A DNA stretch of 21,980 bases from a virus. Taxonomy: Duplodnaviria > Heunggongvirae > Uroviricota > Caudoviricetes. The translations under genes were made by a program, and so were the position numbers. Location of the stretch: the IMG/VR virus record IMGVR_UViG_2700989365_000011, one strand, 5' to 3'. Shown here in pieces: positions 1,084-16,217 of the stretch; position 1 is the first letter of the stretch, and each line of letters begins with the position of its first letter. The notes beneath the pieces were generated by a model. The model was given only the letters and a program-made list of their open reading frames with translations. It was not told where the DNA came from and made no database searches.

Positions 1084-2912
1084 GCAATCATCACTCCATA
1101 GAAACCAGCGATAGTTCTCTCAATAATCCGTCTGTGGACGCCAGCATCAATTAACGATTGAATCTCCATCACCTGCTCCAGAGAAGGCAACGGGATTGAA
1201 TTCAATTCATAGGCCGAAACAGCAACACTTCCGCTTATACACCTGAACGCCCGATCGACAACATGCGAATTAAGTAGCATATCAATAACATCAGGGCGAA
1301 CCGCAGAGAACAATCCGTTTGAATATACAATATTAATATGGTTTTCAACTACTACGCCACCAGTTTCATCTATAAATCCCTGAGGTAAAATTGCCGCTAA
1401 AATCCTTCTGTCCTGTTCCTTCGATGTTGTCCGCTGAACAAGCACACATTCAGATTTTGTCACAAGGAAACCCTGTTGTGGGGTTATATCGATATAGGGA
1501 ACATGATTTTTTCTGTCTGCACTAAAACGAAAACCAGCTGAAGTTATTGATTCCGCCCAGACTAATGGGTAGCTATTTTTTCCTTTCGTCGTACGCAACT
1601 GCGACTTAAATCGATTCCAGACTAACTGACCTGTAGAGACTGAGTATCCCAGATCAGCTAAACGCGTAGACATCTGTTTTAATACATTAAGAAAACAGGC
1701 ATCATCTTTAACGCGTGGCAAAAGCCACGTTGCTCCACCTTTTTCTATATCAACATTACCTATTTTCTCAATTTTTGCTTTGTTCAACCCCTTAGGGACA
1801 AGTGAGGATACCTGGGCCCGAACTTTATGTTCTCCCGCCTTGAATGCTGTCAACATTGTTTCCTGGAGAACATCGTCAAAGACCCCATCCCTGTCAGTGA
1901 CGAAATCAAGGGCATACGGAGTAGTTTTTTCGGTCAAAAGGGTTCGCAGCGCGGTGAAATACTGCCCACCAAGAAAAGAAGTTGGCGTAAGAAATGCAAT
2001 AACTCCTGTTTTCTCTTTAACCATGCGAACAGCTAAGTCGGTGAACAATCCATATAGATTTGCATGACCAAATAACGAACGAGAATATTTTTCTCTCGTT
2101 TTAATATCGAGAGTGACACGTCCGTAAGGCGGATTCCCTACCACAAGATCATAACCAGAAAATTTATCTTGCTGAAGCGCATCAGCAACAATAATTGTAT
2201 CTTCAGGCAATCTACGTTTTACCTTTACACATAGTGGCATTAGTACAGATTCGAGCAATACCAAACTCATCCAAGCCGCAAATGGATCGATCTCTATCCC
2301 CTTTAAACGACGACTGATTCTCCTCAACATCCATTCAGGGGAAGACCCCTTGTCTTTTTTTAACATTCGAATGGCTACTGGTGCCAAAAATGCACCGCCA
2401 CCACACGCAGGATCAATAACCGATGCATGAGAAAAATCAACACCAGACTTTTCAGCCAGGTCCAAGAGACGCGCTACCAAAGGTGGGGGGGTATAGTAAG
2501 CCCCCAATTCCGAACGGTAAGCGGATGGCAGCATTACCGTATAAATTGACCCAATCAGATATCCAGCGTCCTCCGCCGGAAATTGAGCAATAAGCTCACC
2601 TGTTCGTTCAGCGAGCTCGCGTGCATCACATGGAATGTCTTCTATGTAAACAGTGTGCGGTACTGCCCTCATTTTAATGCTGCTTTTTTGCTTTTTTGCA
2701 AGGGTATCCCAATATGCAGCTACGATGCTGAAGCAGTATGAGCGGGCATGCATCAACCTTGACTGCCCGGTTTTGTAATTGCCCGCATAACCTTTGGCCA
2801 TGGCTTTACAAGTTTGATATCTTTCCAGATTAGAAAACTCATTATCTGTAAAAAAATCAAAATGTTGCACATTCATAATGTAAAATCCTAATGTATCAAA
2901 CATGCGGGCCAT
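1080..2912 (-). CDS. N6-adenine DNA methyltransferase, gamma class
   Basis: 610-aa ORF with AdoMet-binding motif I (DPACGGGAFL) N-terminal to catalytic motif IV (VVGNPPYG). Motif order I then IV is the gamma-class arrangement; the long C-terminal region is consistent with a target-recognition domain. Confidence 0.85.
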   Translation of the reverse strand: MARMFDTLGFYIMNVQHFDFFTDNEFSNLERYQTCKAMAKGYAGNYKTGQSRLMHARSYCFSIVAAYWDTLAKKQKSSIKMRAVPHTVYIEDIPCDARELAERTGELIAQFPAEDAGYLIGSIYTVMLPSAYRSELGAYYTPPPLVARLLDLAEKSGVDFSHASVIDPACGGGAFLAPVAIRMLKKDKGSSPEWMLRRISRRLKGIEIDPFAAWMSLVLLESVLMPLCVKVKRRLPEDTIIVADALQQDKFSGYDLVVGNPPYGRVTLDIKTREKYSRSLFGHANLYGLFTDLAVRMVKEKTGVIAFLTPTSFLGGQYFTALRTLLTEKTTPYALDFVTDRDGVFDDVLQETMLTAFKAGEHKVRAQVSSLVPKGLNKAKIEKIGNVDIEKGGATWLLPRVKDDACFLNVLKQMSTRLADLGYSVSTGQLVWNRFKSQLRTTKGKNSYPLVWAESITSAGFRFSADRKNHVPYIDITPQQGFLVTKSECVLVQRTTSKEQDRRILAAILPQGFIDETGGVVVENHINIVYSNGLFSAVRPDVIDMLLNSHVVDRAFRCISGSVAVSAYELNSIPLPSLEQVMEIQSLIDAGVHRRIIERTIAGFYGVMIA

Positions 2913-3126
2913 AACATCTCATGGTGGCGCATAGCAAACTGGCCCGAAGAATATCACGCACCAAGTCGATCTCATAACCCGTTATGACAATAAATCTTTG
3001 TAGCTGAACTCACTTGGTGATTTGTCAATCATTCCTGGCCTCCAGTTCGTCCTGAATCTCTTTATCGAGTTCACCGTATTTGTTAGTCCTCATCACTCAC
3101 GACTTGACTTCCAGAAATAACCTTGA

Positions 3127-3483
3127 TTATTCGGGGCTATATTTTGTCACCCTGCGTATCCGCGCTTTCGCATTACGCTCAATCTGGATTAGCTTTTCTA
3201 TATTTTTTCGCCTTTCCCGCTCCTCCTGGCGCAAGAGCCTTACATCATCTGCCAGTCTGGTTTCTCTTTTCGCCACAGAGAGCATCCAGTCAAATGGCTC
3301 CACAACTGCACCGCAAATTTTACAGCGGACCTGACGCTCTTTTTCGTCAACCCGTACAGAGGCGTGATGGCAATATGGTCTTTCCGATGGCTCATAAAGA
3401 AAATTAACCTGATTACGAGGGTCATCCTCTTTTACCGGAAATAAAACGATATTGCTTAACTCATCTTCTGGTTTTATTTCCAT
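3127..3483 (-). CDS. Prophage protein of unknown function with Cys/His zinc-ribbon-like motif and basic coiled-coil C-terminus
   Basis: 118 aa from the ATG at 3483 (MEIKPEDEL...), with a GGAG-like Shine-Dalgarno upstream. The six-frame ORF extends to 3540 but that start abuts the upstream stop. Contains CHH...CKIC and an R/E/K-rich tail. No paralog in the Rac copy. Confidence 0.5.
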   Translation of the reverse strand: MEIKPEDELSNIVLFPVKEDDPRNQVNFLYEPSERPYCHHASVRVDEKERQVRCKICGAVVEPFDWMLSVAKRETRLADDVRLLRQEERERRKNIEKLIQIERNAKARIRRVTKYSPE

Positions 3484-3540
3484 GCTCCTCTCCTTTGATG
3501 CGAATGCCAGCGGTAATTGAAGCCTGATAGCTAATTTCAC

Positions 3541-3963
3541 TCACAGTACCGCCTCCTGAAAATCACCCTGATAGAAAGCCGGTACACGCTGCATAACTTC
3601 ACTCTTCCGGCACTCGCGACAGATTATGTTCTGATGTCTGTCGTAGCGGCGTATTTCTCCGTCCGGTAATGACCAGATAAGGTCCGGATCAACCACAGAT
3701 GGTTTCTTCAGCTTTGCCCTCGAGAGTTTTTTGCGGGCGTTTTGCCAGTCCTTACGCGCCTGTTCAGACGGGAATAACCCGTAGCCAGAGTTGTATACAT
3801 CCCCACTGGCAACCAGCTCTCTGGCGAGAACGCTTATTAAATATCTTGTCGCCCCGGTTTTAGCTTCCAGTTGTCGTAACGTCTCGCGCCCACTCTGGCG
3901 TACGAGTTCAACAACCTGCCCCTTAATTTTTTCCCGCTCTTCCTGTGTAAATACTTTTGCCAT
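3541..3963 (-). CDS. Conserved lambdoid prophage protein, unknown function
   Basis: 140 aa from the ATG at 3963 (MAKVFTQEE...), GGGGG Shine-Dalgarno upstream; the listed ORF start at 3978 is a TTG. Near-identical paralog at 10223-10639 except for the C-terminal ~12 residues. Confidence 0.6.
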   Translation of the reverse strand: MAKVFTQEEREKIKGQVVELVRQSGRETLRQLEAKTGATRYLISVLARELVASGDVYNSGYGLFPSEQARKDWQNARKKLSRAKLKKPSVVDPDLIWSLPDGEIRRYDRHQNIICRECRKSEVMQRVPAFYQGDFQEAVL

Positions 3964-3978
3964 AAGCGCCCCCGGCAA

Positions 3979-4704
3979 TCACTTTTCCGACACAATACGA
4001 CCGGAGGAATCGACAATCTGTCGAACAATATCCCGGTGCTTGTTCAGCTCCCGCAGCGCGGCGCAGACTCGCTCCCACTTCTGGACATGATTTTTCGCCC
4101 GACGCAGTTCGCGGTTTGCCATATGCAGCGATGGTAAAACCAGGTCATCCGCTTGCGTTTCGGTGAACGATGGCAACGACTGCACAATGTCCGCCACAGT
4201 TTCTGTTTTAATTTCTTCCTGTGTTGCAGCTTCCTGTACCGGTAACGCAACACCTGCTGGCTGAGGAAAGACTTTACCATCCGTTTCCGCTATGGATGCG
4301 GCTTTCGGCTCTGCCGGTAAATCAGCGCCCGGTATGCAGTACCGAAATTTACCGCCCTGATTCACGCGAATCAGACGCCCTTTGCTGATTGCCATGGCCA
4401 GCGATGAATTCGCCCGGCGGGAGGTAATCCCGAACATCAGTGCCAGCTCATCCGCCGTTTGTGGGCCATGTTGTTCAATCGCCTCAGTCAGCATTTGCGC
4501 TGTCACTTTCGGTACCGGTGACACTGGTTCACTTTCACCAGCCTGAATCAGCCACCACATCGAACCCTTGTTATCCGCTTCACCACGGCGCTTCAGTTTC
4601 CACAGTTCGTTGACCGCATCTTCACGGCTGATTCCAAGGCGGGACGCCACCACATGTGAAGAGGCTCTTTTCAGTGCTTTCAGTGCGTCAAATACAGTTT
4701 CCAT
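3979..4704 (-). CDS. Prophage protein with winged-helix-like N-terminal region, unknown function
   Basis: 241 aa from the ATG at 4704 (METVFDALK...), GGAGG Shine-Dalgarno upstream. The C-terminal ~115 aa are nearly identical to the paralog at 10655-11416; the N-terminal halves diverge. Confidence 0.6.
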
Positions 4705-4725
4705 TAAAACATCCTCCAACAAAAA

Positions 4726-5472
4726 TTACTTCACAACTCCCGGAAAGCTGACATTTGAACGCCAGCTATCCCAGTTAAACGTCACCCACCGACAACCGTT
4801 CATGGTCATGCGGTCCATAATCCTCTCACCAAGAAGCGTGCTCATTGCGGCATGATTCAGGTTTGTTAACATCCCGACACTGCACAGTGATGCTGTCCGG
4901 CGATCAATTATCTGGTGCAATACCACCTGCTCGTTTTTCGTCTCCCGCTGAATGCCTATTTCATCCAGGACCAGCAAATCAACCCCGCAAAGCTCCTGTA
5001 AAAATTTTTCACCGGATTTGCCGTTGTCGTAGCTGTCATGCAACACGCTCATGACATCAGACTCGGTGACGATAATCACGCTGCGCCCCTTCGCCATCAG
5101 CCGGTTACCCATCGCCGCTGCAAGGTGATTTTTCCCGGTGCCGGTTTTACCGCTGAACACAAAATTCGTGCACCCGGTCATCAGTTCGTCAGCTATGGAT
5201 TTGGCCTGGCTCAGCGCGTATTTTTGCCCGTCGTTCTGCACCTGATAATTCGCAAACGAGCATTTGCTGTGCAGAGGCTGGATGCCCGAACGATTCAGGA
5301 TTTTTTCCACCCGCAACTGGCGATTCTGGCGGTTAATCTCCTCGCTGCGTTTTCGTCCTTCAGCAAGTTGCCATTCCCGCCACTCCTCCACCGTCCGGTA
5401 CGGTGGAACCGCCCCCTGTGGTGCAAGTCTGTGAATACGTTCAAGAACCCCGGCTGCCGCAATGTTTTTCAT
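4726..5472 (-). CDS. DnaC/IstB-like AAA+ replicative helicase loader
   Basis: 248 aa with Walker A (GKTGTGKNHL) and Walker B (LLVLDEIG). Paralog of 11439-12185. Sits immediately downstream of the O-like gene, as lambda P does. Confidence 0.85.
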   Translation of the reverse strand: MKNIAAAGVLERIHRLAPQGAVPPYRTVEEWREWQLAEGRKRSEEINRQNRQLRVEKILNRSGIQPLHSKCSFANYQVQNDGQKYALSQAKSIADELMTGCTNFVFSGKTGTGKNHLAAAMGNRLMAKGRSVIIVTESDVMSVLHDSYDNGKSGEKFLQELCGVDLLVLDEIGIQRETKNEQVVLHQIIDRRTASLCSVGMLTNLNHAAMSTLLGERIMDRMTMNGCRWVTFNWDSWRSNVSFPGVVK

Positions 5473-5478
5473 GCCACA

Positions 5479-6549
5479 TCACCCCCTGAATCCCGGCGGA
5501 ATTTCGGTATCCGGTTCAGAAATATGATTCACACAACGCTGGTTGTTCGTGCCGCTTACCGGGAGCAACCAGGGGTTTTCAAAATTCCGGTCCGGCCCAA
5601 AAAACGTCGTCGCTCGCTGAACAAATTCCGTTCCCGCTTTCCCGGTCGCCGCCAGGTATCTCGCGTAACGCCTCACACCATCCAGCATGGTCTCTGGTGG
5701 CACCCCCTCGCGCAATCTGGCCTTCCAGGCACTGAATGCGGATTTCTTCGGGTTTGCCCCGGCACGCAACGGGTATTCCCGCCAGACCTGTTCGAACACA
5801 TCCGGATAATCCACTCGTCCCACAGGCTGCCCGGTGTTTTCCGGGGCTACCCGATCGGCTTCCCGCTGAATGGCGGAATCGGCTTCAGGCTGCTGCAGTT
5901 GGAGTGATTGCTCCGGCCTTGCGGTCATCACCTGCTGCACAGCGCCCGAATCGGCTTTCAGCGCATACGCTGAATCGGCTTCCGGTGTCGAGCCTGCTGG
6001 CTGACCAGGATTGACGGTCTGAACATCCCCTGCCTGGTTCGTGGCGTTTTTTACGCCATGGACCATAGTGTTTTGATCTTCTTTATCTGTATCTTTATCT
6101 GTATCTGTCGTGACTCGTCGTGACATGTGCGTGACATTTCGTGACGCGCCGTGACAATCGCCATTTTGTTCCCGCTTTCTTTCCCTCTCTCGCTGCGCCC
6201 TCTTGCGCTCTGCAGGAGATTTTGCGGTTTGCGAAATATTGCCGTTGTCCTCTTTAAGCACCTGGCGTTTTTCCCATCCAGTGATTAAATCACCATCAAG
6301 TACCCGCCCCTGCATCGTCTGCAAAATTGAATCAATTACCTCTTCTGTCACGTCGAGCGCACTTGCCAAATCTTCTGTCGTGACATCAATGTGACCTCGC
6401 GTGACATTTCGTGACGCGCTCACCAGGAGGTGGATATACACTGCCATCACTGTTGCAATTGGCTGCCCTGACACCCTGGCAATTGTTCGCCACTTAGGGT
6501 CATTTGGCATGTCATGCCATAATCTGAGCCAGGCGTTAGCCATACTCAC
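5479..6549 (-). CDS. Replication initiator, lambda O-like
   Basis: 356 aa, located between the YdaT-like gene and the DnaC-like loader. Contains internal iteron arrays. Shares only the C-terminal tail (AIPPGFRG) with the Rac YdaU at 12192-13049. Confidence 0.65.
   Translation of the reverse strand: MSMANAWLRLWHDMPNDPKWRTIARVSGQPIATVMAVYIHLLVSASRNVTRGHIDVTTEDLASALDVTEEVIDSILQTMQGRVLDGDLITGWEKRQVLKEDNGNISQTAKSPAERKRAQRERERKREQNGDCHGASRNVTHMSRRVTTDTDKDTDKEDQNTMVHGVKNATNQAGDVQTVNPGQPAGSTPEADSAYALKADSGAVQQVMTARPEQSLQLQQPEADSAIQREADRVAPENTGQPVGRVDYPDVFEQVWREYPLRAGANPKKSAFSAWKARLREGVPPETMLDGVRRYARYLAATGKAGTEFVQRATTFFGPDRNFENPWLLPVSGTNNQRCVNHISEPDTEIPPGFRG
6081..6155. repeat. Iteron array inside the O-like gene (putative replication origin), cluster 1
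   Basis: Tandem 12-bp CTTTATCTGTAT x2 (6081-6104) followed by five ~10-bp units each ending CGTGAC (6105-6155). Confidence 0.5.
6376..6419. repeat. Iteron array inside the O-like gene, cluster 2
   Basis: Four GTGAC-containing ~10-bp units. The 20-mer CGTGACATTTCGTGACGCGC at 6400-6419 is an exact copy of 6130-6149. Confidence 0.45.
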
Positions 6550-6614
6550 CTCTTCTGATACCGAATCTTTTTACTCACGAGTTGCCGGGAGCGATTCGAT
6601 ATGGCTATTGTCAG

Positions 6615-7040
6615 TCAATGTACTGCCACAGCATTTCCTGCCGGGCCACCACGGTTCATCTGATTGAAACCGGCGATTGCCACTGCGACAAAATCATCAG
6701 CGTCTCTCACCAGTCGTTCATGCGTCTCCACCAGTTCCCGAAAATAAGCTGAACTGTGGCTGCGCATTCGAGCCACCAGCGGAGGTGGCATTGCCCTTTC
6801 GATCGCAGGTAACAACGCCTGAATTTTTTCAACAGCGTCAGGGGTGTCTTTATCCAGCCAACGGAAAATCTTTTGGGTGTTGAGATAAAGCGTGTTGTGC
6901 TTGCTGTCGTTATGCAGAACCGGAAACGTCATTCCCAGTTCGAAATAAACCCTGGTTATTTCAGCTGCCGGAACTTTTTCACCGTCCGGATGCGCCCAGG
7001 CTTTCATCGCCATGCGGATGTGTTCATGCTTGATTTTCAT
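6615..7040 (-). CDS. YdaT-like protein (cII-position gene of Rac-type prophages)
   Basis: 141 aa starting MKIKHEHI..., the same N-terminus as the Rac-copy gene at 13062-13484. ATGA overlap with the upstream Cro-like gene. Confidence 0.7.
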   Translation of the reverse strand: MKIKHEHIRMAMKAWAHPDGEKVPAAEITRVYFELGMTFPVLHNDSKHNTLYLNTQKIFRWLDKDTPDAVEKIQALLPAIERAMPPPLVARMRSHSSAYFRELVETHERLVRDADDFVAVAIAGFNQMNRGGPAGNAVAVH

Positions 7041-7300
7041 GAATCAACCCCCGCCGATGGTTGTGTGTTAGCCTGAAACTCAGCAGGCAAGCCGTCAGTT
7101 GGGTTGGGGTAGGTTTTACTGTCAATCTCATGTGGGGTCACCACCCATCCCGTTGCTTCACACCAACGTAATATTTTTTCTCCTGTAAGTTTTGCACGCC
7201 CCGTTATAACGTGGCTGACCATCCCTTGGGATGCGCCAACAATCTCAGCAAATGAACTCTGGGTTATATGAAAATGATGCAAATATTCTCCAAGATTCAT
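7037..7300 (-). CDS. Cro/YdaS-like HTH regulator
   Basis: 87 aa from the ATG at 7300; the listed ORF start at 7327 is a TTG. Divergent from the cI-like repressor across an operator-containing intergenic region. Confidence 0.7.
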   Translation of the reverse strand: MNLGEYLHHFHITQSSFAEIVGASQGMVSHVITGRAKLTGEKILRWCEATGWVVTPHEIDSKTYPNPTDGLPAEFQANTQPSAGVDS

Positions 7301-7336
7301 AATCCGCCCTATGTGATGTGTTACCAATGCATAATT

Positions 7337-7376
7337 AATAGCACTGTTATTTTTAAAAGTAAATAGTGATACTATT
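7337..7376. promoter_or_regulatory. OR-like operator pair between Cro-like and cI-like genes
   Basis: Two 15-bp palindromes, AATAGCACTGTTATT (7337-7351) and AATAGTGATACTATT (7362-7376), centres 25 bp apart. Confidence 0.45.
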
Positions 7377-7411
7377 TCAAAGTGATTAGCAATCTTATTA
7401 GAATTGGATGT

Positions 7412-7912
7412 ATGAAAAGAAAATCATTGTCAGACACCGACCTCAACGCCGCCAGAAGACTGAAAGAAATCTGGATGGCAAAGAAATCTCAGTTGGGATT
7501 GACTCAGGAACGTGCGGCGGAAATTATGGGGTTTTCAACACAAGGGGCGGTAAGTCACTACCTAAATGGTCAAACCCCACTAAACCTTGAGGCTGTTCTA
7601 AAGTTTGCTGGCTTACTGAAAGTTCCCCCTGAGTCAATCAGGCCAGACATGGTAGATTTGCTGCAAATTGCAAGGATGTATTGTCGAGAACCACAGCAAG
7701 ATAACATAGTCGCATTACCAGCAGACACAGAACAAACAGAGGATGAACTACCGTTTGCCGTAGAGCCGATGGAACGAGATTTAATCCATACGTTCAGAGC
7801 TTTTCCGAAAGAAGATCAAGAACACATGCTTCAGGAGATGAAAGATAAAAAAGAATCAATGGATCGTACGGTTGCGCGGTGGTTAGCTGCACAAAAAGGC
7901 CGTCGCGCCTAA
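7412..7912 (+). CDS. cI-like XRE-family HTH repressor without a recognisable C-terminal S24 peptidase domain
   Basis: 166 aa from the ATG at 7412 (MKRKSLSDTDL...); a GTG at 7382 is an alternative start. HTH region LTQERAAEIMGFSTQGAVSHYLNG. Immediately upstream of the toxin-antitoxin pair, as in repressor-antitoxin-toxin operons. Confidence 0.75.
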   Translation: MKRKSLSDTDLNAARRLKEIWMAKKSQLGLTQERAAEIMGFSTQGAVSHYLNGQTPLNLEAVLKFAGLLKVPPESIRPDMVDLLQIARMYCREPQQDNIVALPADTEQTEDELPFAVEPMERDLIHTFRAFPKEDQEHMLQEMKDKKESMDRTVARWLAAQKGRRA

Positions 7913-7931
7913 ATCAGAGGAGATATGTAAA

Positions 7932-8126
7932 ATGAGTACAGTCCTTTCCCCAATGGTTTCAGAATTTGAGACAGTTGAGCAAGAAAATAGTTACAACGAA
8001 TGGCTGCGGGCCAAAGTAGCAGCAAGCCTCGCGGATCCCCGCCCGGCGATTCCGCATGATGAGGTAATGGCGGAAATGGAACAAATTATTGCCCAAATTG
8101 CTGCTGCAACTCACAGAGGTGAATAA
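7932..8126 (+). CDS. Antitoxin partnering the ParE-family toxin (PaaA/ParD-like)
   Basis: 64 aa, GAGGAG Shine-Dalgarno 8 nt upstream. Its stop overlaps the toxin ATG (TAATG at 8124-8128). Confidence 0.65.
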   Translation: MSTVLSPMVSEFETVEQENSYNEWLRAKVAASLADPRPAIPHDEVMAEMEQIIAQIAAATHRGE

Positions 8127-8416
8127 TGTTACCCGTTTTATGGCTACCATCTGCTCGTGATGATTTGCGCCAGATCGTAGCCTACATAGCTAAAGAAAAT
8201 CCCGCGGCAGCACGCAGAATGAAAATTCGAATTGAAACATCCGTTTTGCCGCTCACAGAGCATCCTTACCTGTATCCTCCAAGCGAGCGAGTTCTTGGTC
8301 TTCGTGAAATTGTAACTCATCCTAACTACATCATCCTTTACCGAGTAACAGCATCAAGCATAGAAGTAGTAAATATTGTGCATTCTCGAAGACAGTATCC
8401 AGGCAAAAACAGTTAA
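8126..8416 (+). CDS. parE: RelE/ParE-family type II toxin
   Basis: 96 aa with the characteristic C-terminal pattern ...IILYRV...IEVVNIVHSRRQ. Translationally coupled to the upstream antitoxin. Confidence 0.8.
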   Translation: MLPVLWLPSARDDLRQIVAYIAKENPAAARRMKIRIETSVLPLTEHPYLYPPSERVLGLREIVTHPNYIILYRVTASSIEVVNIVHSRRQYPGKNS

Positions 8417-8434
8417 TTATTCCCGCCGACAGAA

Positions 8435-8455
8435 CCACCTTAGGGTGGTTTTTTC
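8435..8455 (+). terminator. Rho-independent terminator after the toxin gene
   Basis: CCACC-TTAG-GGTGG hairpin followed by a T tract. Confidence 0.7.
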
Positions 8456-8472
8456 TTGCCCCAACAAAAAAC

Positions 8473-8515
8473 AATAGCGATGCTATTTACATCAAAAAAA
8501 AATAATGATGCTATT
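8473..8515. promoter_or_regulatory. OL-like operator pair upstream of the ydaF-like operon
   Basis: AATAGCGATGCTATT (8473-8487) and AATAATGATGCTATT (8501-8515), the same 15-bp motif family as the sites at 7337-7376. Confidence 0.45.
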
Positions 8516-8696
8516 GTTTCAGGCGTCAACCCACCCCGCCCCACAGAATGCAGGGCAATACTTCGAGTTACCAGACAGTGGTCAGGGGTTAAGTAGCCAG
8601 CCCGAGGCGTAAGAACATGACGGCAGGGTTCAATCTTTAACTATGCAGCAGGTTTTTTGTTCCGCCACCCCGGCGTTAAGGGGAAATGAGGTCAGC

Positions 8697-8849
8697 ATGG
8701 ATACTATCGATCTTGGCAACAACGAATCTCTGGTGTGCGGCGTGTTCCCTAACCAGGATGGAACGTTTACCGCCATGACGTATACCAAAAGCAAAACGTT
8801 TAAAACCGAATCTGGCGCGCGTTGCTGGTTAGCCAGAAACACTGACTGA
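8697..8849 (+). CDS. YdaF-like small protein (homolog of Rac ydaF at 14670-14825)
   Basis: 50 aa (MDTIDLGNNESLVCGVFPNQDGTFTAMTYTKSKTF...), about 85% identical to the Rac-copy YdaF. GAGG Shine-Dalgarno upstream. Confidence 0.7.
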   Translation: MDTIDLGNNESLVCGVFPNQDGTFTAMTYTKSKTFKTESGARCWLARNTD

Positions 8850-8860
8850 TGAGGCTGACG

Positions 8861-9226
8861 ATGGAATTTAAAGATTTACCGTCTGATGTACAGAAAACAG
8901 CAGCTCATACATTGCATTCTGTGCTGCGAGAAATCGGGAAAGATATTGCAAGCGAGCCAGCAAAAGATCTGGCCCGGAAAATCAAGACCGCTTTCGTTGA
9001 GCTTTATAATGTTGGCACTGACTCTGAAACTGTCGAGACCAAGACCGTAAGTTCACCAATATTCTCACTTGAGCCAAGCGTATTATCAGGTGAAATATGC
9101 ACCGAGATTTCCAGCGAACTGCTTCCGGTAATACGAGAAGCAATTCGCCGTCGCGGTTTGGATGGAAGTTATGATCATGACGTTCTGCAAGTTCTCAGGA
9201 CAATGGTGACTTCACTGGGGATTTGA
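8861..9226 (+). CDS. Unknown acidic, helix-rich 121-aa protein in the pL-like operon
   Basis: ORF from the ATG at 8861 with GAGG 6 nt upstream; the alternative ATG at 8849 overlaps the ydaF-like stop (TGATG). No counterpart in the Rac copy, and no family recognised by eye. Confidence 0.5.
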   Translation: MEFKDLPSDVQKTAAHTLHSVLREIGKDIASEPAKDLARKIKTAFVELYNVGTDSETVETKTVSSPIFSLEPSVLSGEICTEISSELLPVIREAIRRRGLDGSYDHDVLQVLRTMVTSLGI

Positions 9227-9373
9227 TCCCTGCGTCCTCTAAGCTTTTGATATAGCGGTCCTCCAAGAAGCGGTAAATTTTGTCGAAATCATCTTTTCCC
9301 TCTGGTTTATTCAGAGGATTACAGGACCCGTAAGTAGCGGCATACATTTCAACCGTTTGGTAATGACTCCAAC

Positions 9374-9877
9374 TTATTGATAGTGTTTTATGTTCAGATA
9401 ATGCCCGATGACTTTGTCATGCAGCTCCACCGATTTTGAGAACGACAGCGACTTCCGTCCCAGCCGTGCCAGGTGCTGCCTCAGATTCAGGTTATGCCGC
9501 TCAATTCGCTGCGTATATCGCTTGCTGATTACGTGCAGCTTTCCCTTCAGGCGGGATTCATACAGCGGCCAGCCATCCGTCATCCATATCACCACGTCAA
9601 AGGGTGACAGCAGGCTCATAAGACGCCCCAGCGTCGCCATAGTGCGTTCACCGAATACGTGCGCAACAACCGTCTTCCGGAGACTGTCATACGCGTAAAA
9701 CAGCCAGCGCTGGCGCGATTTAGCCCCGACATAGCCCCACTGTTCGTCCATTTCCGCGCAGACGATGACGTCACTGCCCGGCTGTATGCGCGAGGTTACC
9801 GACTGCGGCCTGAGTTTTTTAAGTGACGTAAAATCGTGTTGAGGCCAACGCCCATAATGCGTGCAGTTGCCCGGCAT
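9374..9877 (-). CDS. insB: IS1 InsB (transposase frame; InsAB' is made by frameshifting)
   Basis: 167-aa ORF overlapping the 3' end of insA in a different frame. Confidence 0.9.
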
Positions 9878-10071
9878 CCAACGCCATTCATGGCCATATC
9901 AATGATTTTCTGGTGCGTACCGGGTTGAGAAGCGGTGTAAGTGAACTGCAGTTGCCATGTTTTACGGCAGTGAGAGCAGAGATAGCGCTGATGTCCGGCA
10001 GTGCTTTTGCCGTTACGCACCACCCCGTCAGTAGCTGAACAGGAGGGACAGCTGATAGAAACAGAAGCCAC
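9796..10071 (-). CDS. insA: IS1 InsA
   Basis: 91 aa, [40 protein letters not shown]... Confidence 0.95.
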
Positions 10072-10126
10072 TGGAGCACCTCAAAAACACCATCATACAC
10101 TAAATCAGTAAGTTGGCAGCATCACC

Positions 10127-10137
10127 NNNNNNNNNNN
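10127..10137. other. Assembly gap (run of 11 N)
   Basis: N run directly abutting the IS1 terminus, the usual signature of a contig break at a repeat. Confidence 0.95.
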
Positions 10138-10222
10138 CAAAGCGGACAACCACGCTAGCTCTCCCCTGTGCCAGAAAAATGTCAATTTACATATGAACTA
10201 ATGCTCTTTGATCTAGTAACGT

Positions 10223-10639
10223 CTATAAATACCGAAGATTTCCTTGATAAAATGCCAGTACACGTTTCATAACTTCACTCTTCCGGCACTCGCGACAGAT
10301 TATGTTCTGACGCCTGTCATAGCGGCGTATTTCTCCGTCTGGTAATGACCAGATAAGGTCAGGATCAACCACAACCGTTTTTTTCACCTTTGCCCTGGAT
10401 AGTTTTTTGCGGGCGTTTTTCCAATCCTTACGAGCCTGTTCAGACGGGAATAACCCATAGCCAGAGTTGTATACATCGCCACTGGCAACCAACTCTCTGG
10501 CAAGAATGCTCATCAGATATCTTGTCGCACCTGTCTTGGCCTCCAGTTGCCTTAACGTCTCGCGCCCACTCTGGCGTACCAACTCAACAACCTGCTCCTT
10601 AATTTTTTCACGCTCTTCCTGTGTAAAAACTTTTGCCAT
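10223..10639 (-). CDS. Conserved lambdoid prophage protein, paralog of 3541-3963
   Basis: 138 aa from the ATG at 10639, GGAGG Shine-Dalgarno upstream. The C-terminus differs from the left-prophage copy. Confidence 0.6.
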   Translation of the reverse strand: MAKVFTQEEREKIKEQVVELVRQSGRETLRQLEAKTGATRYLMSILARELVASGDVYNSGYGLFPSEQARKDWKNARKKLSRAKVKKTVVVDPDLIWSLPDGEIRRYDRRQNIICRECRKSEVMKRVLAFYQGNLRYL

Positions 10640-10654
10640 AAGCGCCTCCGGCAA

Positions 10655-11416
10655 TCACTTTTCCGACACAATACGACTGGAGGAATCGACAATCTGTCGG
10701 ACAATATCCCGGTGCTTGTTCAGCTCCCGCAGCGCGGCGCAGACTCGCTCCCACTTCTGGACATGATTTTTCGCCCGACGCAGTTCGCGGTTTGCCATAT
10801 GCAGCGATGGTAAAACTAGGTCATCCGCTTGCGTTTCAGTAAACGATGGCAGCGACTGCACAATGTCCGCCACAGTTTCTGTTTTAATATCTTCCTGTGT
10901 TGCCGCTTCCTGTACTGGTAACGCAACACCGGCTGGCTGAGGAAAGGCTTTACCATCAGTTTCCGCTACCGATGCAGCTTTCGGCTCTGCTGGTAAATTA
11001 TCGCCCGGCATGCAGTAACGAAATTTACTGTTCTGGTTTACGCGAATCAGGCGTCCTTTGCTGATTGCCATTGCCAGCGTTGAAGCAACTTTGCGGGATG
11101 TTGTACCGAACAGCGTAGCCAGTTCATCCGCCGTTTGTGGTCCGCGTTGTTCAATCGTCGCGGTTAAATCGCACTCTGAGATTTTCACTACAGTTGCCGT
11201 GGTGGTTTCTTCCGGCAGTTCTGCCTGCATTGGCTGTTCCTGCTGAACGTTGTTATCAGCCACACGCCAGGTGTACGCGCTTTTATCAACGAAACCAGCT
11301 TTTTTCAGTTCCCATAGTTCGTTCAGCACTTCTTCACGACTGATATCAAGTCGCGCAGCAAGTTCTATGGATGTGGCTTTTCCCATTGCTTTCAGTGCGT
11401 CAAAAACAGTCTCCAT
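10655..11416 (-). CDS. Prophage protein with winged-helix-like N-terminus, paralog of 3979-4704 (ydaW position of Rac)
   Basis: 253 aa from the ATG at 11416 ([13 protein letters not shown]...), GGAGG Shine-Dalgarno upstream. Confidence 0.6.
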
Positions 11417-11438
11417 AAAAATTTCCTCCCGGTAAAAA

Positions 11439-12185
11439 TTACTTCTCAATTCCTGGCTGGACGACATTCGGACGCCAGCTCTCCCAGTTAAAATTCACCC
11501 ATCGCCCGCCGTTCATGGTCATGCGATCCATAATCCGCTCGCCGAGCAATGTTTTCATGGCCTCATAGTTCAGGTTTGTCAGCATCCCCACGCTGCGCAT
11601 CGACGCTGTCCGGCGATCAACAATCTGGTGCAGCACCACCTGCTCGTTTTTCGTCTCGCGCTGAATGCCAATTTCATCAAGAACCAGCAGATCCACTTCG
11701 CATAGTTCCCGCAAAAATTTTTCGCCTGACTGCCCATCGTCATAGCTGGCGTGCAGGGCACTCATAACATCAGCCACGGTAACCACAATCACTGTCTGAC
11801 CGTCTTTCAGCAGGCGATTCCCGATAGCTGCCGCTAAGTGATTCTTCCCGGTACCAGGTTTTCCGCTGAACGCAAAATTTGTACACCCGGTCATCAGTTC
11901 ATCAGCGATGGATTTCGCCTGACTCAACGCGTATCGCTGCGCTTCGTTCTGCACCTGGTAATTCGAAAACGAGCATTTGCGGTGCAATGGCTGGATGCCA
12001 GAGCGATTCAGAATTTTTTCCACCCGCAACTGACGATTCTGACGGTTGATCTCCTCACAACGTTTCTGGCCTTCGGAAAGTTGCCACTCGCGCCACTCCG
12101 CTACCGTCTTGAATGGCGCGGTTACATGTGACGGGGCCAGTCTGCGGATACGTTCAAGAACGTCGCCTGTCGCAATATTTTTCAT
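11439..12185 (-). CDS. ydaV: DnaC-like AAA+ helicase loader
   Basis: 248 aa with Walker A ([10 protein letters not shown]) and Walker B (LLVLDEIG). Symbol assigned from position and length in a Rac-type gene order. Confidence 0.75.
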
Positions 12186-12191
12186 GGTCAG

Positions 12192-13049
12192 TTACCCCCT
12201 GAAGCCTGGCGGGATCGCACTATCCGGTAACGAGACGGTGTTAACCTGTCGGAGTAACGTCTCAGGTCGAACACCTTTCGGCGCGAACAAGCCCTGGTAT
12301 TCATTGGCGATGCTGTGTCGAATCACCTGCTCAGGTGTAAAACCCTGCTGACGGAATTTTTCCAGTTCCCGTATCGCCCCGTTAGCGCCCTGCTCCGTTC
12401 GAATCGGTTTTCGCAATGCCTGGCGAAATTCAACCCACTCACGCCAAAGCGAGACAGAAATCCAGTTCGGCAAAGCAATATCCAGAGGGTCAAACTTTTT
12501 GACACCTCGATTCCCCCGGGGGGGATTTAGGGGGGGATCTGTTTTTAGATCTTTATCTGTATCTTTATTAGTTGCCTTTGTGTTGACATCATGTTCAAAC
12601 ACCACTTCAACATCTGTTTGAACACCTGTTAAATTTCTCTCTTGTTTTGTTTGAACATCTGCTTCCTTTCTGCTTCTTCTGGCCTGAACAGATGCTTTTC
12701 CTGCGGCTGATTTTTTGGTTAATTTTTCCCTGACTGATGCCAGATCTTCCTCAATCCGAAGATGCACCCATTCCTCGCCGTTATCGCAAAAAAACTCCTG
12801 CAAGGATGGTTCAACATCAGCCCATCGCTCGTTAGTCAGACGGGCAATTTTTGCCAGCCTGTTTTTAGGTATTGGCTTTCCTGTTTGCCAGTAATTGAAC
12901 ATCAGCAACAAATACGCACCATGCTCCTCTGCTGACAAATGCATGGTGTCAGCCAGGTAATCAGCTATGTACAGTTGCATGTATGGTAATGCGGCCATAA
13001 TTGCCCCGTATGATGCTGCCCGGTGGCTTAGAATAAGCACAAACAGCAT
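12192..13049 (-). CDS. ydaU: Replication initiator, O-like (DUF1376-type N-terminus)
   Basis: 285 aa, MAALPYMQLYIADYLADTMHLSAEEHGAYLLLMFNYWQTGK... Internal iterons present. Symbol assigned from position and length. Confidence 0.7.
   Translation of the reverse strand: MLFVLILSHRAASYGAIMAALPYMQLYIADYLADTMHLSAEEHGAYLLLMFNYWQTGKPIPKNRLAKIARLTNERWADVEPSLQEFFCDNGEEWVHLRIEEDLASVREKLTKKSAAGKASVQARRSRKEADVQTKQERNLTGVQTDVEVVFEHDVNTKATNKDTDKDLKTDPPLNPPRGNRGVKKFDPLDIALPNWISVSLWREWVEFRQALRKPIRTEQGANGAIRELEKFRQQGFTPEQVIRHSIANEYQGLFAPKGVRPETLLRQVNTVSLPDSAIPPGFRG
12513..12657. repeat. Iteron-like repeats inside ydaU (putative Rac origin)
   Basis: CCCCCGGGGGGG G-tract pair (12513-12537), a CTTTATCTGTATCTTTAT block like that of the left prophage, and three copies of a 10-mer in alternating orientation: TGTTCAAACA (12592-12601), TGTTTGAACA (12615-12624, 12648-12657). 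Confidence 0.45.
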
Positions 13050-13061
13050 GGAAACTTTTGC

Positions 13062-13484
13062 TTAATGAACAATGACAGAATCGTCGGAAGACCCGCCGCC
13101 GCTGAAATGCGCTTTCCGGTAAACGGCTTGGACTGCATCATCATGCGCATCAATTGCCGTACTTAACGCTTCCTGCGCCGCCAGTAATGCACGGCGTTCC
13201 AGGGTATCGAAGATGCAGAGTCGGTGACGCAGCTCGCGCGGAAGGATTGCCAGAATTGCTGGGATCAGCTTCTGAATTTTTTCTCTTTGCGTTTTCGTTT
13301 CACCTTTCAACCAACGGTGATAGATATTCTGCTGATTATTCCAGTCCTTGCCTGGTACCAGGGGCAATTCGCCGCCCCCCTGGCGCAGATATTCTTCAGT
13401 AATGGCATTGGCTACCCATGCCTGCCCTTTTTCGGCTGCCAGGGCTAACAACACTGACTCGATGTGCTCATGCTTGATTTTCAT
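13062..13484 (-). CDS. ydaT: YdaT-like protein
   Basis: 140 aa starting MKIKHEHI...; ATGA overlap with the upstream gene. Symbol assigned by synteny. Confidence 0.65.
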   Translation of the reverse strand: MKIKHEHIESVLLALAAEKGQAWVANAITEEYLRQGGGELPLVPGKDWNNQQNIYHRWLKGETKTQREKIQKLIPAILAILPRELRHRLCIFDTLERRALLAAQEALSTAIDAHDDAVQAVYRKAHFSGGGSSDDSVIVH

Positions 13485-13735
13485 GAATCAACTCCCATCA
13501 GCTTTTTCGTAGTAGTTTTATTTCTGCCAATAGTTAAAATTACATCAGCAGAAAATAATCCGTTTGATGCATGAGCGATTTTTTCAGCGTAATTTGTTTC
13601 GCCGGTATATTCTGTGCGAGGCAATTTTCCGTTATCCATCCATTTGTAGATTGCTCTTTGGCTGACACCACAAACGTCGGCCACAACAGAAACGCGAACA
13701 GTTTTGATTACATCTTCAAGTGTTTTCTGGTTCAT
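13481..13735 (-). CDS. ydaS: Cro/YdaS-like regulator
   Basis: 84 aa from the ATG at 13735 (MNQKTLEDV...). The longer listed ORF begins at 13807 and would overlap racR. Symbol assigned by synteny; start uncertain. Confidence 0.55.
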   Translation of the reverse strand: MNQKTLEDVIKTVRVSVVADVCGVSQRAIYKWMDNGKLPRTEYTGETNYAEKIAHASNGLFSADVILTIGRNKTTTKKLMGVDS

Positions 13736-13759
13736 ATCACCCTCACAATGTGAACTTTG

Positions 13760-13790
13760 AGTACATGCTATAACAGAACTGACAGTACAT
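13760..13790. promoter_or_regulatory. Candidate RacR operator half-sites in the ydaS-racR intergenic region
   Basis: AGTACAT at 13760-13766 and 13784-13790 (24-bp spacing); the same heptamer recurs downstream of racR. Confidence 0.35.
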
Positions 13791-13796
13791 TCAAGA

Positions 13797-14234
13797 GTGA
13801 ATATCATTGAACTTATGGTTCATGAAGATAAAGCGCGTAAAGAGTTCGCCAGTAGGCTTGCGCTAGCCTGTGAAAACGCTGGTTATGAACAACATGGAAG
13901 GCAGGCAGAAATTGCCCGTCGAATGAAATTAACACCAAAAGCGGTTAGCAAATGGTTTAATGGCGAAACAATTCCTCGCCGAGAGAAATTAAGGGAATTA
14001 GCAACACTCATTGGAACAACACCAACCTATCTTTTGGGAGAGGATACAGAAGAAAGTGGACAGGTACGTTTCTATCAGGAGTTAAATCCAAGACAAAAAA
14101 TCATCATTGACCTTCTGGACGAGCTCCCTGACAGTGAGACAGATGAACTTTTAAAAACTCTTGAGGAGAAAAAACAGAAGTACAATGCAATTTACGAAGA
14201 GCTAGCACGAAAGAAAAAACAAAAAGCCTCTTAA
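13797..14234 (+). CDS. racR: XRE-family HTH repressor (Rac repressor position)
   Basis: 145 aa from the GTG at 13797, or 139 aa from the ATG at 13815. HTH region GRQAEIARRMKLTPKAVSKWFNG. No S24 peptidase domain. Symbol assigned by synteny with ydaG/ydaF/sieB. Confidence 0.65.
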   Translation: MNIIELMVHEDKARKEFASRLALACENAGYEQHGRQAEIARRMKLTPKAVSKWFNGETIPRREKLRELATLIGTTPTYLLGEDTEESGQVRFYQELNPRQKIIIDLLDELPDSETDELLKTLEEKKQKYNAIYEELARKKKQKAS

Positions 14235-14309
14235 ACCAGCATAAATCCGGTAGCGTCCCCCTCCGGGTTTGTGCTTCACTTTATCCCATCTCATTTTTTT
14301 ACACACAAA

Positions 14310-14350
14310 ATGTACTTATAGTACTTTACATCAATGAACACAAAGTACAT
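14310..14350. promoter_or_regulatory. Candidate operator cluster downstream of racR, upstream of the ydaG leader
   Basis: ATGTACT (14310-14316, inverted), AGTACTT (14320-14326) and AGTACAT (14344-14350). Confidence 0.35.
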
Positions 14351-14524
14351 TATATACCTACCAACCCACCCCGCCCCACAGAACGCAGGGCAATACTTCG
14401 AGTTACCAGGCAGTGGTCAGGGGTTAAGTAGCCAGCCCGAGGCGTATGAACATGACGGCAGGGTTCAGATTTTGCAGTGCAGCAGGTTTCAGTTCCGCCA
14501 CCCGGCGTTAAGGGGAGAGATAAG

Positions 14525-14659
14525 ATGGTGCATTACGAAGTAGTTCAGTATTTGATGGATTGTTGCGGTATCACTTACAACCAGGCTGTGCAGGCTTTAC
14601 GCAGCAACGACTGGGATCTCTGGCAGGCAGAAGTCGCTATACACAGCAACAAGATGTGA
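14525..14659 (+). CDS. ydaG: Rac prophage small protein YdaG
   Basis: 44 aa, MVHYEVVQYLMDCCGITYNQAVQALRSNDWDLWQAEVAIHSNKM. Confidence 0.75.
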   Translation: MVHYEVVQYLMDCCGITYNQAVQALRSNDWDLWQAEVAIHSNKM

Positions 14660-14669
14660 GATTCGCAAA

Positions 14670-14825
14670 ATGCAAAAAATCGACCTCGGCAACAACGAAT
14701 CCCTGGTGTGCGGCGTGTTCCCCAACCAGGATGGAACGTTCACTGCCATGACGTATACCAAAAGCAAAACATTTAAAACCGAAACTGGTGCGCGCCGATG
14801 GTTGGAGAAGCACACAGTAAGCTAA
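14670..14825 (+). CDS. ydaF: Rac prophage small protein YdaF
   Basis: 51 aa, MQKIDLGNNESLVCGVFPNQDGTFTAMTYTKSKTFKTETGARRWLEKHTVS. Convergent 4-nt overlap with sieB. Confidence 0.75.
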   Translation: MQKIDLGNNESLVCGVFPNQDGTFTAMTYTKSKTFKTETGARRWLEKHTVS

Positions 14826-15310
14826 CGATTAAAACGTCTACTCCTGCTGTTCCAGAATAACTTCATAAAATGGGAGTATTTTTCGGTGACGAGATAATAA
14901 GAACAGTTTGCGCTATCACTCTGATGTTGAATGATGCCCTTCCGTTCTAATTTTTTCATAACCGGGTTACGGCAAGGAGAAGTGATAATAAGATTTCCTG
15001 TTTTAAGGAAATCTTTAAATACAGCGATTTCTTTCTCAGATAAACGAAGCAATACTCGTTGCTCTGGTAGTAATGAATAATGCTTTTGAATATGTGCTCG
15101 CAATCTTGAGAAGGAAATGGCGACCACGAAAGAAAAGGCAAAAACGATAATCTGAAAGAGCCAAGGTATTTCAGTATAAGCATTGAATGCGACAGTAAAC
15201 TCTTTCGGTATCAGCCAGAGAGTGAGACCAAAAATGATAATCGTATACATAAGTATTTCGAGTGGCTCGTTAGCAAAAAGTTTCAACAATGGAGTAAATA
15301 CATCCAACAT
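14822..15310 (-). CDS. sieB: Superinfection exclusion protein B
   Basis: 162 aa from the ATG at 15310 (MLDVFTPLLKLFANEPLEILMYTIIIFGLTLWLIPK...), with hydrophobic membrane segments. Confidence 0.85.
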   Translation of the reverse strand: MLDVFTPLLKLFANEPLEILMYTIIIFGLTLWLIPKEFTVAFNAYTEIPWLFQIIVFAFSFVVAISFSRLRAHIQKHYSLLPEQRVLLRLSEKEIAVFKDFLKTGNLIITSPCRNPVMKKLERKGIIQHQSDSANCSYYLVTEKYSHFMKLFWNSRSRRFNR

Positions 15311-15751: not shown

Positions 15752-15973
15752 ATGATTGCACATCACTTCGGAACTGATGAAATACCACGTCAGTGTGTGA
15801 CTCCTGGCGATTATGTTCTTCATGAAGGCCGGACATATATTGCCTCGGCAAACAATATTAAAAAGCGAAAACTATATATTCGTAACCTGACCACAAAAAC
15901 ATGCATTACTGACCGCATGATTAAAGTCTTCCTCGGTCGTGATGGTTTACCTGTAAAGGCGGAGTCATGGTGA
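15752..15973 (+). CDS. kilR: Rac prophage killing protein KilR
   Basis: 73 aa, [46 protein letters not shown]...; GGAG Shine-Dalgarno upstream. Confidence 0.85.
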
Positions 15974-16143: not shown

Positions 16144-16217
16144 TTAATTGACTATTCGAAACTGAATTTATGCCAGAAATGGCAGGGATTCGCTCAACCT
16201 TAATTAAGGAGAAAAAC

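Follow-up and report, generated by a model that had tools for sequence, protein, structure and literature searches.

A covarying RNA domain predicted at the 5′ end of the early-left transcript of Rac-type and other lambdoid prophages

The window analyzed here, a 21,980-nucleotide (nt) stretch of the IMG/VR virus record IMGVR_UViG_2700989365_000011 to which all coordinates refer, comprises two lambdoid immunity regions in tandem, as disclosed by a repeat finder through repeat families D1-D6, spaced 5.8-6.7 kb apart. Each region carries a copy of the same leader downstream of its early-left promoter (PL), the so-called left copy, in a left prophage remnant, and the so-called Rac copy. The first ~104 nt of this leader very probably constitute an independently folding RNA domain located at the 5′ end of the PL transcript in many lambdoid prophages, including the Rac-type and Qin/dicB-type prophages of E. 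coli. Judged by sequence comparison, the domain is a leader RNA of a phage early operon that lies outside the put and nut families and is described nowhere that we found.

The leader repeat

The segments 8527-8632 and 14362-14467 are 97% identical over 106 nt with no gap (family D5), in line with the ~95% over the first ~105 nt reported in a preliminary description of the window. Beyond this block, pairwise alignment of 8633-8696 with 14468-14524 discloses similarity with small indels as far as the Shine-Dalgarno (SD) region, the same limit given in that description. On the 3′ side of the two leaders, the ydaF copies are just 88% identical (family D3); on the 5′ side, ~70 nt align near-randomly, except for the common −35 hexamer TTTACA, so that the earlier statement that the upstream operators differ completely holds for the region at large but is slightly overstated. 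The preliminary description had also treated the leader as a single conserved element of ~165 nt. The conservation is real, but the unit is the ~104-nt domain, the remaining ~60 nt forming a separate module that is missing in several lineages. Its observation that the left leader lacks ydaG and is fused to ydaF stands, since this leader runs straight into the DUF1391/YdaF gene at 8697-8849.

Overall architecture of the domain

The left copy extends over 8528-8630 (+ strand; nhmmer, 95.9 bits; covariance model R1, 89.7 bits, E ~2e-23) and the Rac copy over 14363-14465 (+ strand; nhmmer, 98.3 bits; R1, 89.8 bits), with the helices of the left copy and the pair counts of the Rac copy taken from a structural alignment, A4. 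The domain starts 4-8 nt past the predicted PL start and comprises four helices: P1 joins positions +4 to +8 with about +102 to +106, and P2 is stacked on P1. The two helices are contiguous on the 5′ side, and a 36-nt one-sided junction separates their 3′ strands. The P3/P4 region includes a 4-5-nt A-rich bulge and a 15-nt apical loop (CAAUACnnnGAGUUA).

In the left copy, the helices correspond to P1 (8528-8532/8626-8630), P2 (8533-8537/8585-8589), P3 (8541-8544/8578-8581), and P4 (8550-8555/8571-8576), the latter with one C·A mismatch, together with the apical loop CAAUACUUCGAGUUA (8556-8570) and the invariant junction strand (8590-8625). The Rac copy comprises P1 (14363-14367/14461-14465), P2 (14368-14372/14420-14424), P3 (14376-14379/14413-14416), and P4 (14385-14390/14406-14411), with a tandem A·G/G·A in the middle of P4, the 5-nt bulge AGAAC (14380-14384), the apical loop (14391-14405), and the junction strand (14425-14460).

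The 36-nt junction strand shows the consensus (U)AAGUAGCCAGCCYGAGGCrnanGAACAUGAMGGCR. A total of 37 columns are invariant, all of them unpaired, and they fall in the first A of the bulge on the 5′ side between P3 and P4, the apical loop, and the junction strand; the invariant-base segments of the domain include AAGUAGCC, GAACAUGA, and GAGUUA. The overall shape may be modeled as a long, bent, stacked hairpin with the 36-nt junction, and the junction strand probably contains a small GCC/GGC hairpin. A loop-junction pseudoknot, which would link the variable apical-loop triplet to the four variable nucleotides of the junction, was sought by eye, with no correlation found, and comparison with the sarcin-ricin, kink-turn, and tetraloop-receptor motifs gave incomplete matches only.

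Covariation of the helices

The alignment A4 comprises 44 representative sequences covering nine sequence types, arranged in hand-built blocks by type with N in place of gaps. Standard pairs occupy 88.6% of its cells, a share that drops to 26-45% once the 3′ partner strands have been slid 1-3 columns. Both sides change in 25 of the 27 pairs, and the covariation score reaches 0.486 versus at most 0.089 in the slid alignments, with none of 500 shuffles attaining any of the observed measures. The helices P1, P2, P3, and P4 are paired in 90%, 86%, 97%, and 82% of their cells, respectively. In an alignment-free swap test, the strands of P2-P4 yield −16.1 kcal/mol with their own partner strands and −9.7 kcal/mol with foreign ones, the signal being weaker for P1 (−6.6 vs −4.6).

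The nine types differ in four strongly divergent segments, which are always complementary and whose lengths differ between types by 1, 2, or 4 nt. P1 occurs as AACCC/GGGUU, AACAAC/GUUGUU, CAGCAAC/GUUGCUG, UCACU/AGUGA, CCAACC/GGUUGG, and CACCCC/GGGGUG. Within E. coli, P2 proceeds from ACCCC/GGGGU through AUCCC/GGGGU to AUCCC/GGGAU, with ACCAC/GUGGU and GCAAC/GUUGC in other types. The variants of P3 are CCAC/GUGG, CGCAU/AUGCG, GGCAA/UUGCC, GGCAGAA/UUUUGCC, and CAAACUG/CAGUUUG, with GGUAA/UUACC in one Arsenophonus copy, and those of P4 include CGCUGAG/CUCAGUG and CACGAAG/CUUCGUG. The individual minimum-free-energy (MFE) folds of divergent members give the same architecture. R1, a covariance model built from the N-padded alignment, also detects two types outside the alignment, L151 and L185 (Superficieibacter, Pantoea), in which P1, P3, and P4 are seen by eye to be formed with new complementary sequences. 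Detection by R1 is good, but its own alignment (A5) deletes P3 in type A and was not counted.

The use of a hand-built block alignment responds to the outcome of MAFFT followed by RNAalifold, which recovered only the invariant GCC/GGC stem from 38 homologues, because sequence alignment shifts the variable helices out of register. Two alternative pairings, the 5′ GCC with the invariant GGC and a GGNU-AAGU-AGCC hairpin, are paired in 69% and 82% of cases, respectively, with no both-side change, and are possible but unsupported.

These data bear directly on the explanation that the conservation reflects no RNA function at all, being due to recent recombination, to a protein-binding site at the DNA level, or to a small open reading frame (ORF). 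Lambdoid prophages swap modules freely, most E. coli copies are >90% identical, and wobble statistics leave the strand unfixed, all of which would fit such an explanation. However, the copies of other genera are ~75% identical or less and keep the helices by compensatory changes, DNA-binding sites do not covary, and on neither strand does a frame stay open through all types; we consider this explanation highly improbable. A protein-coding small ORF was rejected, each of the six frames being interrupted by a stop or a frameshift in some of the nine types; the six-frame translation of both strands, with length differences that are not multiples of three, bears out the absence of a conserved reading frame noted in the preliminary description. 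The same description placed the conservation at the RNA or DNA level and proposed covariation in homologous leaders as the check. This comparison argues strongly for the RNA level, with compensatory changes in four helices, at least 10 genera, and no kept frame, and contradicts recent recombination as the sole explanation.

Distribution among phages and bacterial genera

Matches to window positions 14240-14700 are present in 3798 of 5426 complete E. coli genomes (~70%). Many of these matches cover only 14359-14516, with both flanks different, so that the leader stands out as a mosaic module in its own right. Viral contigs scanned with GAACATGACGGCAG yielded 80 homologues, 57 of them distinct, and a scan with AAGTAGCCAGCCNGAGGC, using one genome per species, added Arsenophonus (many copies per genome), Phlomobacter, Serratia, Symbiopectobacterium, Pectobacterium, Winslowiella, Pantoea, Superficieibacter, E. 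ruysiae, and Shigella. The collection amounts to 138 copies, 98 distinct, with Escherichia also among the genera. In phage records, the domain always lies between the repressor gene and the early-left genes, and its carriers comprise Rac-type operons (ydaG-ydaF-sieB-kil-recE) and one Qin-type operon (DicF-dicB; phage Tritos). Another record, L002 (PP818812.1, 'Actinobacillus phage vB_Apl-pPE4'), combines Rac-like genes, namely those for ydaT, a DicA-type repressor, kil, and exonuclease VIII, with a type-B domain identical to that of E. coli-associated viral contigs, and its stated host looks doubtful.

The domain could alternatively be the first product of the strongest early promoter, released to act in trans as a sponge or decoy that binds or titrates an anti-phage system or host factor. 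It does behave as an optional cassette, since the lambda transcript starts directly with AUCAGCAGG..., a sequence found after the domain in Serratia and E. coli, and the invariant loops would fit a protein-binding surface. Against it, neither a terminator nor a recognizable processing site follows P1, profile and locus comparisons of the collected copies revealed no copy outside a PL leader context, and no partner is known, leaving a trans-acting RNA quite improbable.

Promoters, operators, and the putL position

The left PL-like promoter (8486-8514, + strand), read from the sequence and aligned to the Rac promoter, comprises a −35 TTTACA (8486-8491) and a putative weak −10 (~8509-8514), and overlaps two operator repeats on the + strand, AATAGCGATGCTATT and AATAATGATGCTATT; transcription is predicted to start at ~8521-8523. 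The Rac PL region (14297-14360, + strand) includes the operators AAAATGTACTTATAGTACTTT...AAAGTACAT, a −35 TTTACA (14325-14330), and a −10 CATTAT (14348-14353) located by promoter scan, with the predicted +1 at A14360, placed by homology to the PL transcript of phage HK022, whose first bases are given in PMC9378689. Across the collection, conservation begins at the predicted +1 behind at least 10 unrelated operator/promoter sets, and homologues display a CAU(C/A) start motif 4-8 nt before P1.

Between ~−45 and about −7, the Rac promoter and its operators share ~85% identity with HK022 PL, diverging from the start site on, and the DNA-binding domain of the Rac repressor is 47% identical to HK022 CI. 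Both findings support the earlier placement of the leader just downstream of a PL-like promoter. Because the promoter and the repressor domain are homologous to those of HK022 and the similarity stops at +1, where HK022 encodes putL, the domain would thus represent a natural replacement of putL. The C-terminal part of the repressor of this Rac variant resembles RacR and is not a LexA-type peptidase. The variant displays HK022-like immunity, and the K-12 Rac operator region is different, matching only from window position 14359 onward.

Comparison with put, nut, and other RNAs

HK022 putL is reportedly a polymerase-utilization RNA, said to have been described by King and colleagues in 1996. The put RNAs bind the zinc-binding domain of the RNA polymerase β′ subunit and suppress termination with no protein factor, and copies are located behind both PL and PR. 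The domain resembles HK022 putL in being a structured RNA directly downstream of a PL whose promoter, operators, and repressor DNA-binding domain are homologous to those of the window, and in being carried by prophages with no N gene in the early-left operon and with terminators downstream. In contrast, put RNA is ~70 nt long and folds into two adjacent stem-loops, stem I and stem II, arranged in a V shape (PMC9378689), side by side, whereas the domain is ~104 nt long, closed by P1, and built of nested helices with a 36-nt junction; antitermination by the domain is, moreover, only proposed. Rfam matches nothing in the HK022 region either, so the comparison was made directly: when putL and the cro-cII region were compared with the window by blastn-short, only 9-13-nt chance matches and the operator match at 14307-14324 emerged, and membership in the put family was rejected.

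The domain shares with lambda nutL its position in the transcript between PL and the first early gene, and lies adjacent to a nutL in Arsenophonus and Symbiopectobacterium. However, lambda nutL comprises boxA and boxB and acts with the N protein, whereas the window copies show no boxA (CGCUCUUUA-like) within 120 nt downstream, no GNRA-like boxB, and no N gene further on, the genes identified by Pfam downstream being those for DUF1391, a UBA-like protein, and kilR. Of 90 distinct downstream contexts, the 26 that contain a boxA belong to Arsenophonus, Phlomobacter, or Symbiopectobacterium, and none of these boxA sequences lies inside the domain. In the Arsenophonus locus L127, each of two adjacent immunity regions presents in order a repressor, a promoter, the domain, the boxA CGCUCUUUAAC, a boxB-like hairpin, an N-leader-like stretch, and an N-like protein; the locus has a clear boxB (CGCU-GAAAA-AGCG), a true boxB having been seen in Arsenophonus only, and its N-like protein contains an arginine-rich motif. 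In Symbiopectobacterium, the domain is followed by boxA-type sequences and, further on, by an N-like gene that encodes an arginine-rich motif. The nut-like label of the preliminary description is therefore not supported, given that the window copies have no boxA or N gene and that the domain elsewhere precedes a separate nutL. Arsenophonus genomes display paired immunity regions 1.9-2.7 kb apart (L127, 4748-7778, − strand; also L141, L175, L186, and L205), and the N leader of L127 is lambda-like (UUUGGGGUGUGUG...CACACACCACC), with many such copies per genome.

Two other kinds of leader RNA invite comparison. The EAR RNA of Bacillus eps operons is a structured leader RNA that promotes processive antitermination; the likeness, of concept only, is that of a structured leader heading a long operon with internal terminators, and sequence, structure, and taxon are unrelated. 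Orphan riboswitch-like leaders share covarying helices, invariant junctions and loops, and a 5′ leader overlapping an SD-AUG, but no common expression platform, link to a metabolic gene, or candidate ligand was recognized for the domain.

A search of Rfam 15 yields only RalA in the window at the gathering score, nothing at E ≤ 10 in 14300-14700, and, for the domain of six divergent loci, nothing at E ≤ 1; the Rfam check proposed earlier thus assigns the domain to no family. No tRNA or tmRNA was detected at the domain, the K-12 annotation holds no feature there, and full-text searches for the invariant motifs and for the ydaG, ydfA, and dicB leaders found no published description of it. The Rho-dependent terminator of Rac, trac, is located inside racR (PMC4150792), away from the domain, and identity with it was rejected, as was identity with the prophage Pas small RNA (sRNA), which lies beside structural genes, has its own terminators, and is restricted to Escherichia/Shigella.

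Proposed function

By analogy with put, the domain may exert cis control of transcription elongation, put-like in function and not in family, a tentative reading that is favored because the domain occupies the putL slot behind a homologous PL and a terminator lies downstream in operons lacking N. In the Rac region, an intrinsic-terminator-like hairpin between sieB and kilR (15529-15577, + strand; GGCGGCAUCAG...CUGAUGUCCGCC, then CUUUUUAAAG; ΔG −19.5 kcal/mol, z −2.8) is homologous to the terminator end of DicF in the Qin-type operon. Of 93 domain copies, 58 are followed by a DicF-type terminator motif at a distance of 0.25-1.6 kb; types C, D, and E show analogous GGCGG...CCGCC-U5 hairpins, and the strong terminator of the Serratia locus L164 is a different one. 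Overall, types A, C, D, E, and Serratia L164 display an intrinsic terminator ~0.75-1.5 kb downstream. Among the operons examined, those of E. coli, Serratia, Pectobacterium, and Pantoea lack an N-type gene after the domain. As a separate observation, the DicF-terminator-like hairpin and the next ~50 nt (UUUUUAAAGUGAAUUUUGUGAUGCGGUGAAUGCGGCUAAGCGCACG), at 15529-15625 (+ strand), are common to the Qin-type dicF-dicB region; DicF is not called by Rfam at these positions, so what Rac retains upstream of kilR may be no more than the 3′ end of a DicF-like gene.

According to this proposal, the domain would fold on the nascent transcript and act in cis on the transcribing complex, so that RNA polymerase would pass the DicF-type terminator and the Rho sites ~1 kb downstream. 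The resulting read-through would lead to expression of kilR/dicB, recET, and xis/int in phages with no N protein, and the invariant unpaired nucleotides would form the contact surface for a conserved host machine, either RNA polymerase or a Nus factor. We infer the start site, the polymerase contact, and the effect on termination. The more specific claim, namely that the PL transcript of Rac- and Qin/dicB-type prophages contains a second class of RNA-only processive antiterminator, unrelated to put and governing read-through of the DicF-type terminator, is a conjecture of rather doubtful standing.

Several points weigh against this proposal and the fold on which it is built. The full ~170-nt leader is no more stable than its shuffles (z +1.3 and +1.6), scores regarded as uninformative and not as negative because the MFE mixes two modules. 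The alignment contains 34 G·U cells versus 31 A·C cells, so that wobble pairs do not decide the folding strand; since these counts are equal in effect, the choice of strand rests on the orientation of the promoter and on the tandem G·A pairs in P4. The structural alignment was hand-fitted at type level, and homologues were fetched by exact motifs, inflating the apparent invariance of those motifs. The invariance is not purely a retrieval artifact, because each scan fixes one motif, and the other motif and the apical loop are conserved too. Regarding function, the domain has no likeness in sequence or architecture to put RNAs, and R1 finds nothing in the HK022 locus; each immunity region holds a single copy, with none detected on the PR side by nhmmer or R1; the domain precedes boxA and an N-like gene in Arsenophonus and Symbiopectobacterium, where an RNA antiterminator looks redundant; and translation from an SD-AUG in the junction would melt P1, pointing to translational control. 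Weightiest among these points are the presence of N and nutL beside the domain in some lineages, the missing PR copy, and the SD-AUG.

This last element deserves a separate description. In the left junction (8604-8640, + strand), an SD-like GAGG (8604-8607) and an AUG (8617-8619) open a 7-codon ORF, MTAGFNL, that passes through the 3′ strand of P1 and stops at 8638-8640. In the Rac junction (14439-14511, + strand), the GAGG (14439-14442) and AUG (14452-14454) open a 19-codon, nonconserved ORF that ends at UAA 14509-14511, in the loop of a hairpin preceding the SD of the first gene. The domain could therefore be a riboregulator of an internal ribosome-binding site, responding to a ligand, temperature, or a protein, in which folding of P1 and the junction hides GAGG-N9-AUG, and ribosome loading on the leader ORF sets Rho-dependent polarity or the coupled translation of the first gene. 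The GAGG-N9-AUG arrangement is kept in 93 of the 98 distinct homologues, and a conserved aptamer-like core with covarying helices, the generic mark of a riboswitch, is present, the covarying helices around an invariant junction having the look of ligand-binding aptamers. Most type-A copies of E. coli have this AUG in the reading frame of ydfA, which a frequent 3-nt indel leaves intact, and the leader ORF of Symbiopectobacterium stops 3 nt before the next start codon. Nevertheless, neither the peptide nor its length is conserved, a range of 6-20 or more codons looking unselected; the AUG is lost in five copies, including the sole Pantoea sequence; no common alternative pairing or expression platform was seen, the next element in Arsenophonus being nutL; and all 36 junction nucleotides are conserved, beyond SD and AUG. 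On balance, a riboregulator seems unlikely. The annotation of phage Tritos includes an in-frame junction start (CDS 2589-2825 of L003).

A generic role in mRNA metabolism has also been weighed, in which the domain, with no effect on the polymerase, would either shield the long PL mRNA from 5′-end-dependent RNase E decay or serve as an RNase III/RNase E processing site of the type known from the T7 early mRNAs and the lambda N leader. The predicted 5′ end lies 4-8 nt before P1, the domain precedes any downstream content, even a complete nutL and N, as suits a generic mRNA element, and P1-P4 form a coaxial interrupted duplex of ~20-25 base pairs, the size class of RNase III substrates. Yet a stabilizing hairpin needs no particular sequence, and the 37 unpaired positions invariant from Escherichia to Arsenophonus argue for specific recognition, which makes stabilization or processing an improbable account of the domain.

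The second leader module

The sequence that follows the domain varies by lineage, comprising nutL, a second module, or an immediate SD. In the left leader, the second module (8631-8696, + strand) includes GCAGCAGG (8645-8652), GUUCCGCC (8659-8666), a hairpin with the stem CCCC (8668-8671)/GGGG (8680-8683), and the SD GAGG (8688-8691). In the Rac leader (14466-14524, + strand), it includes GCAGCAGG (14479-14486), GUUCCGCC (14492-14499), a hairpin with the stem CCC (14501-14503)/GGG (14512-14514), and the ydaG SD. The left hairpin reads CCCC-GGCGUUAA-GGGG, with an 8-nt loop. The stem covaries in relatives (CCG/CGG, GCCG/CGGC, GCCAG/CUGGC, and GCGU/ACGC), and the loops are GGCGUUAA or GAAAGA. The preliminary description had seen no boxB-like hairpin by eye; a GNRA-like boxB is indeed missing, but this covarying hairpin lies just before the SD (8668-8683).

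Apart from 1-nt indels, the nucleotide sequence of the module is conserved in E. coli, Serratia, Pectobacterium, Pantoea, Winslowiella, and Superficieibacter, and many lineages lacking N show (AU)CAGCAGG...ACGUUCCGC and the covarying hairpin after the domain (L164, L136, L128, L133, L151, L185, and L159). It resembles the first ~35 nt of the lambda PL transcript (AUCAGCAGGACG...), and because of this likeness the domain has the appearance of a cassette placed between an older leader and +1. A further pairing can be drawn between GGCG..GAAC of the domain and GUUC..CGCC of the second module (GUUCCGCC), in which both sides are invariant and no covariation signal is possible.

Genomic context of the two immunity regions

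The left immunity region comprises in order a helix-turn-helix repressor (7382-7912), a PaaA2/ParE pair (7932-8416), a terminator, the promoter-like region, the leader, and the DUF1391 gene, a member of the YdaF/YdfA family that is the first of the left early-left operon (8697-8849, + strand; Pfam DUF1391, E 1.3e-28). The PaaA2/ParE toxin-antitoxin pair (+ strand) thus lies between the left repressor gene and the left PL, and a hairpin with a U-run (CCACCUUAGGGUGGUUUUUU) at 8431-8458, on its 3′ side, would block read-through into the leader. The left element (window 1-9300) is a truncated prophage, with an early-left operon ending after two genes near 9230, and directly abuts the right end of Rac (9370-21980). 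The replication genes of the two elements are 75-88% identical (families D1, D2, D4, and D6).

The Rac region comprises the repressor (13797-14234), the promoter, the leader, ydaG, ydaF, sieB (opposite strand), kilR, ydaE, racC, recE, and recT, with the RalA sRNA beyond. According to the K-12 RefSeq annotation of the homologous region, ydaG (14525-14659, + strand) encodes 44 amino acids, with a weak UBA-like Pfam match, and is followed by ydaF (14670-14825, + strand; Pfam DUF1391). The full-length RalA antitoxin sRNA is located at 20246-20424 (− strand; RF02694, 225 bits), as expected beside ralR in Rac.

Significance

Rac and Qin are among the most studied cryptic prophages, as exemplified by recET, kilR, dicB/DicF, and RacR-YdaS/T, yet the interval from the repressor to the first early-left gene carries no annotation. 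Being found in ~70% of E. coli genomes, as well as in prophages of insect symbionts and plant pathogens, the highly conserved, covarying RNA constitutes a concrete candidate for a regulatory element at this position, bearing on the step that decides the expression of toxic early genes. How lambdoid phages lacking N pass their early terminators is an open question in recent surveys (PMC12315714), and the antiterminator proposal, if true, would explain this passage. The domain would then govern the kil/dicB division inhibitors, recET, and the excision genes in ~70% of complete E. coli genomes, including K-12, and, if acting on RNA polymerase, it would join just one other phage RNA known to do so with no dedicated protein. 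If the domain were instead a switch responsive to a ligand or a protein, the prophage would sense the state of its host at its first transcript. Either way, the domain is a candidate new RNA family.

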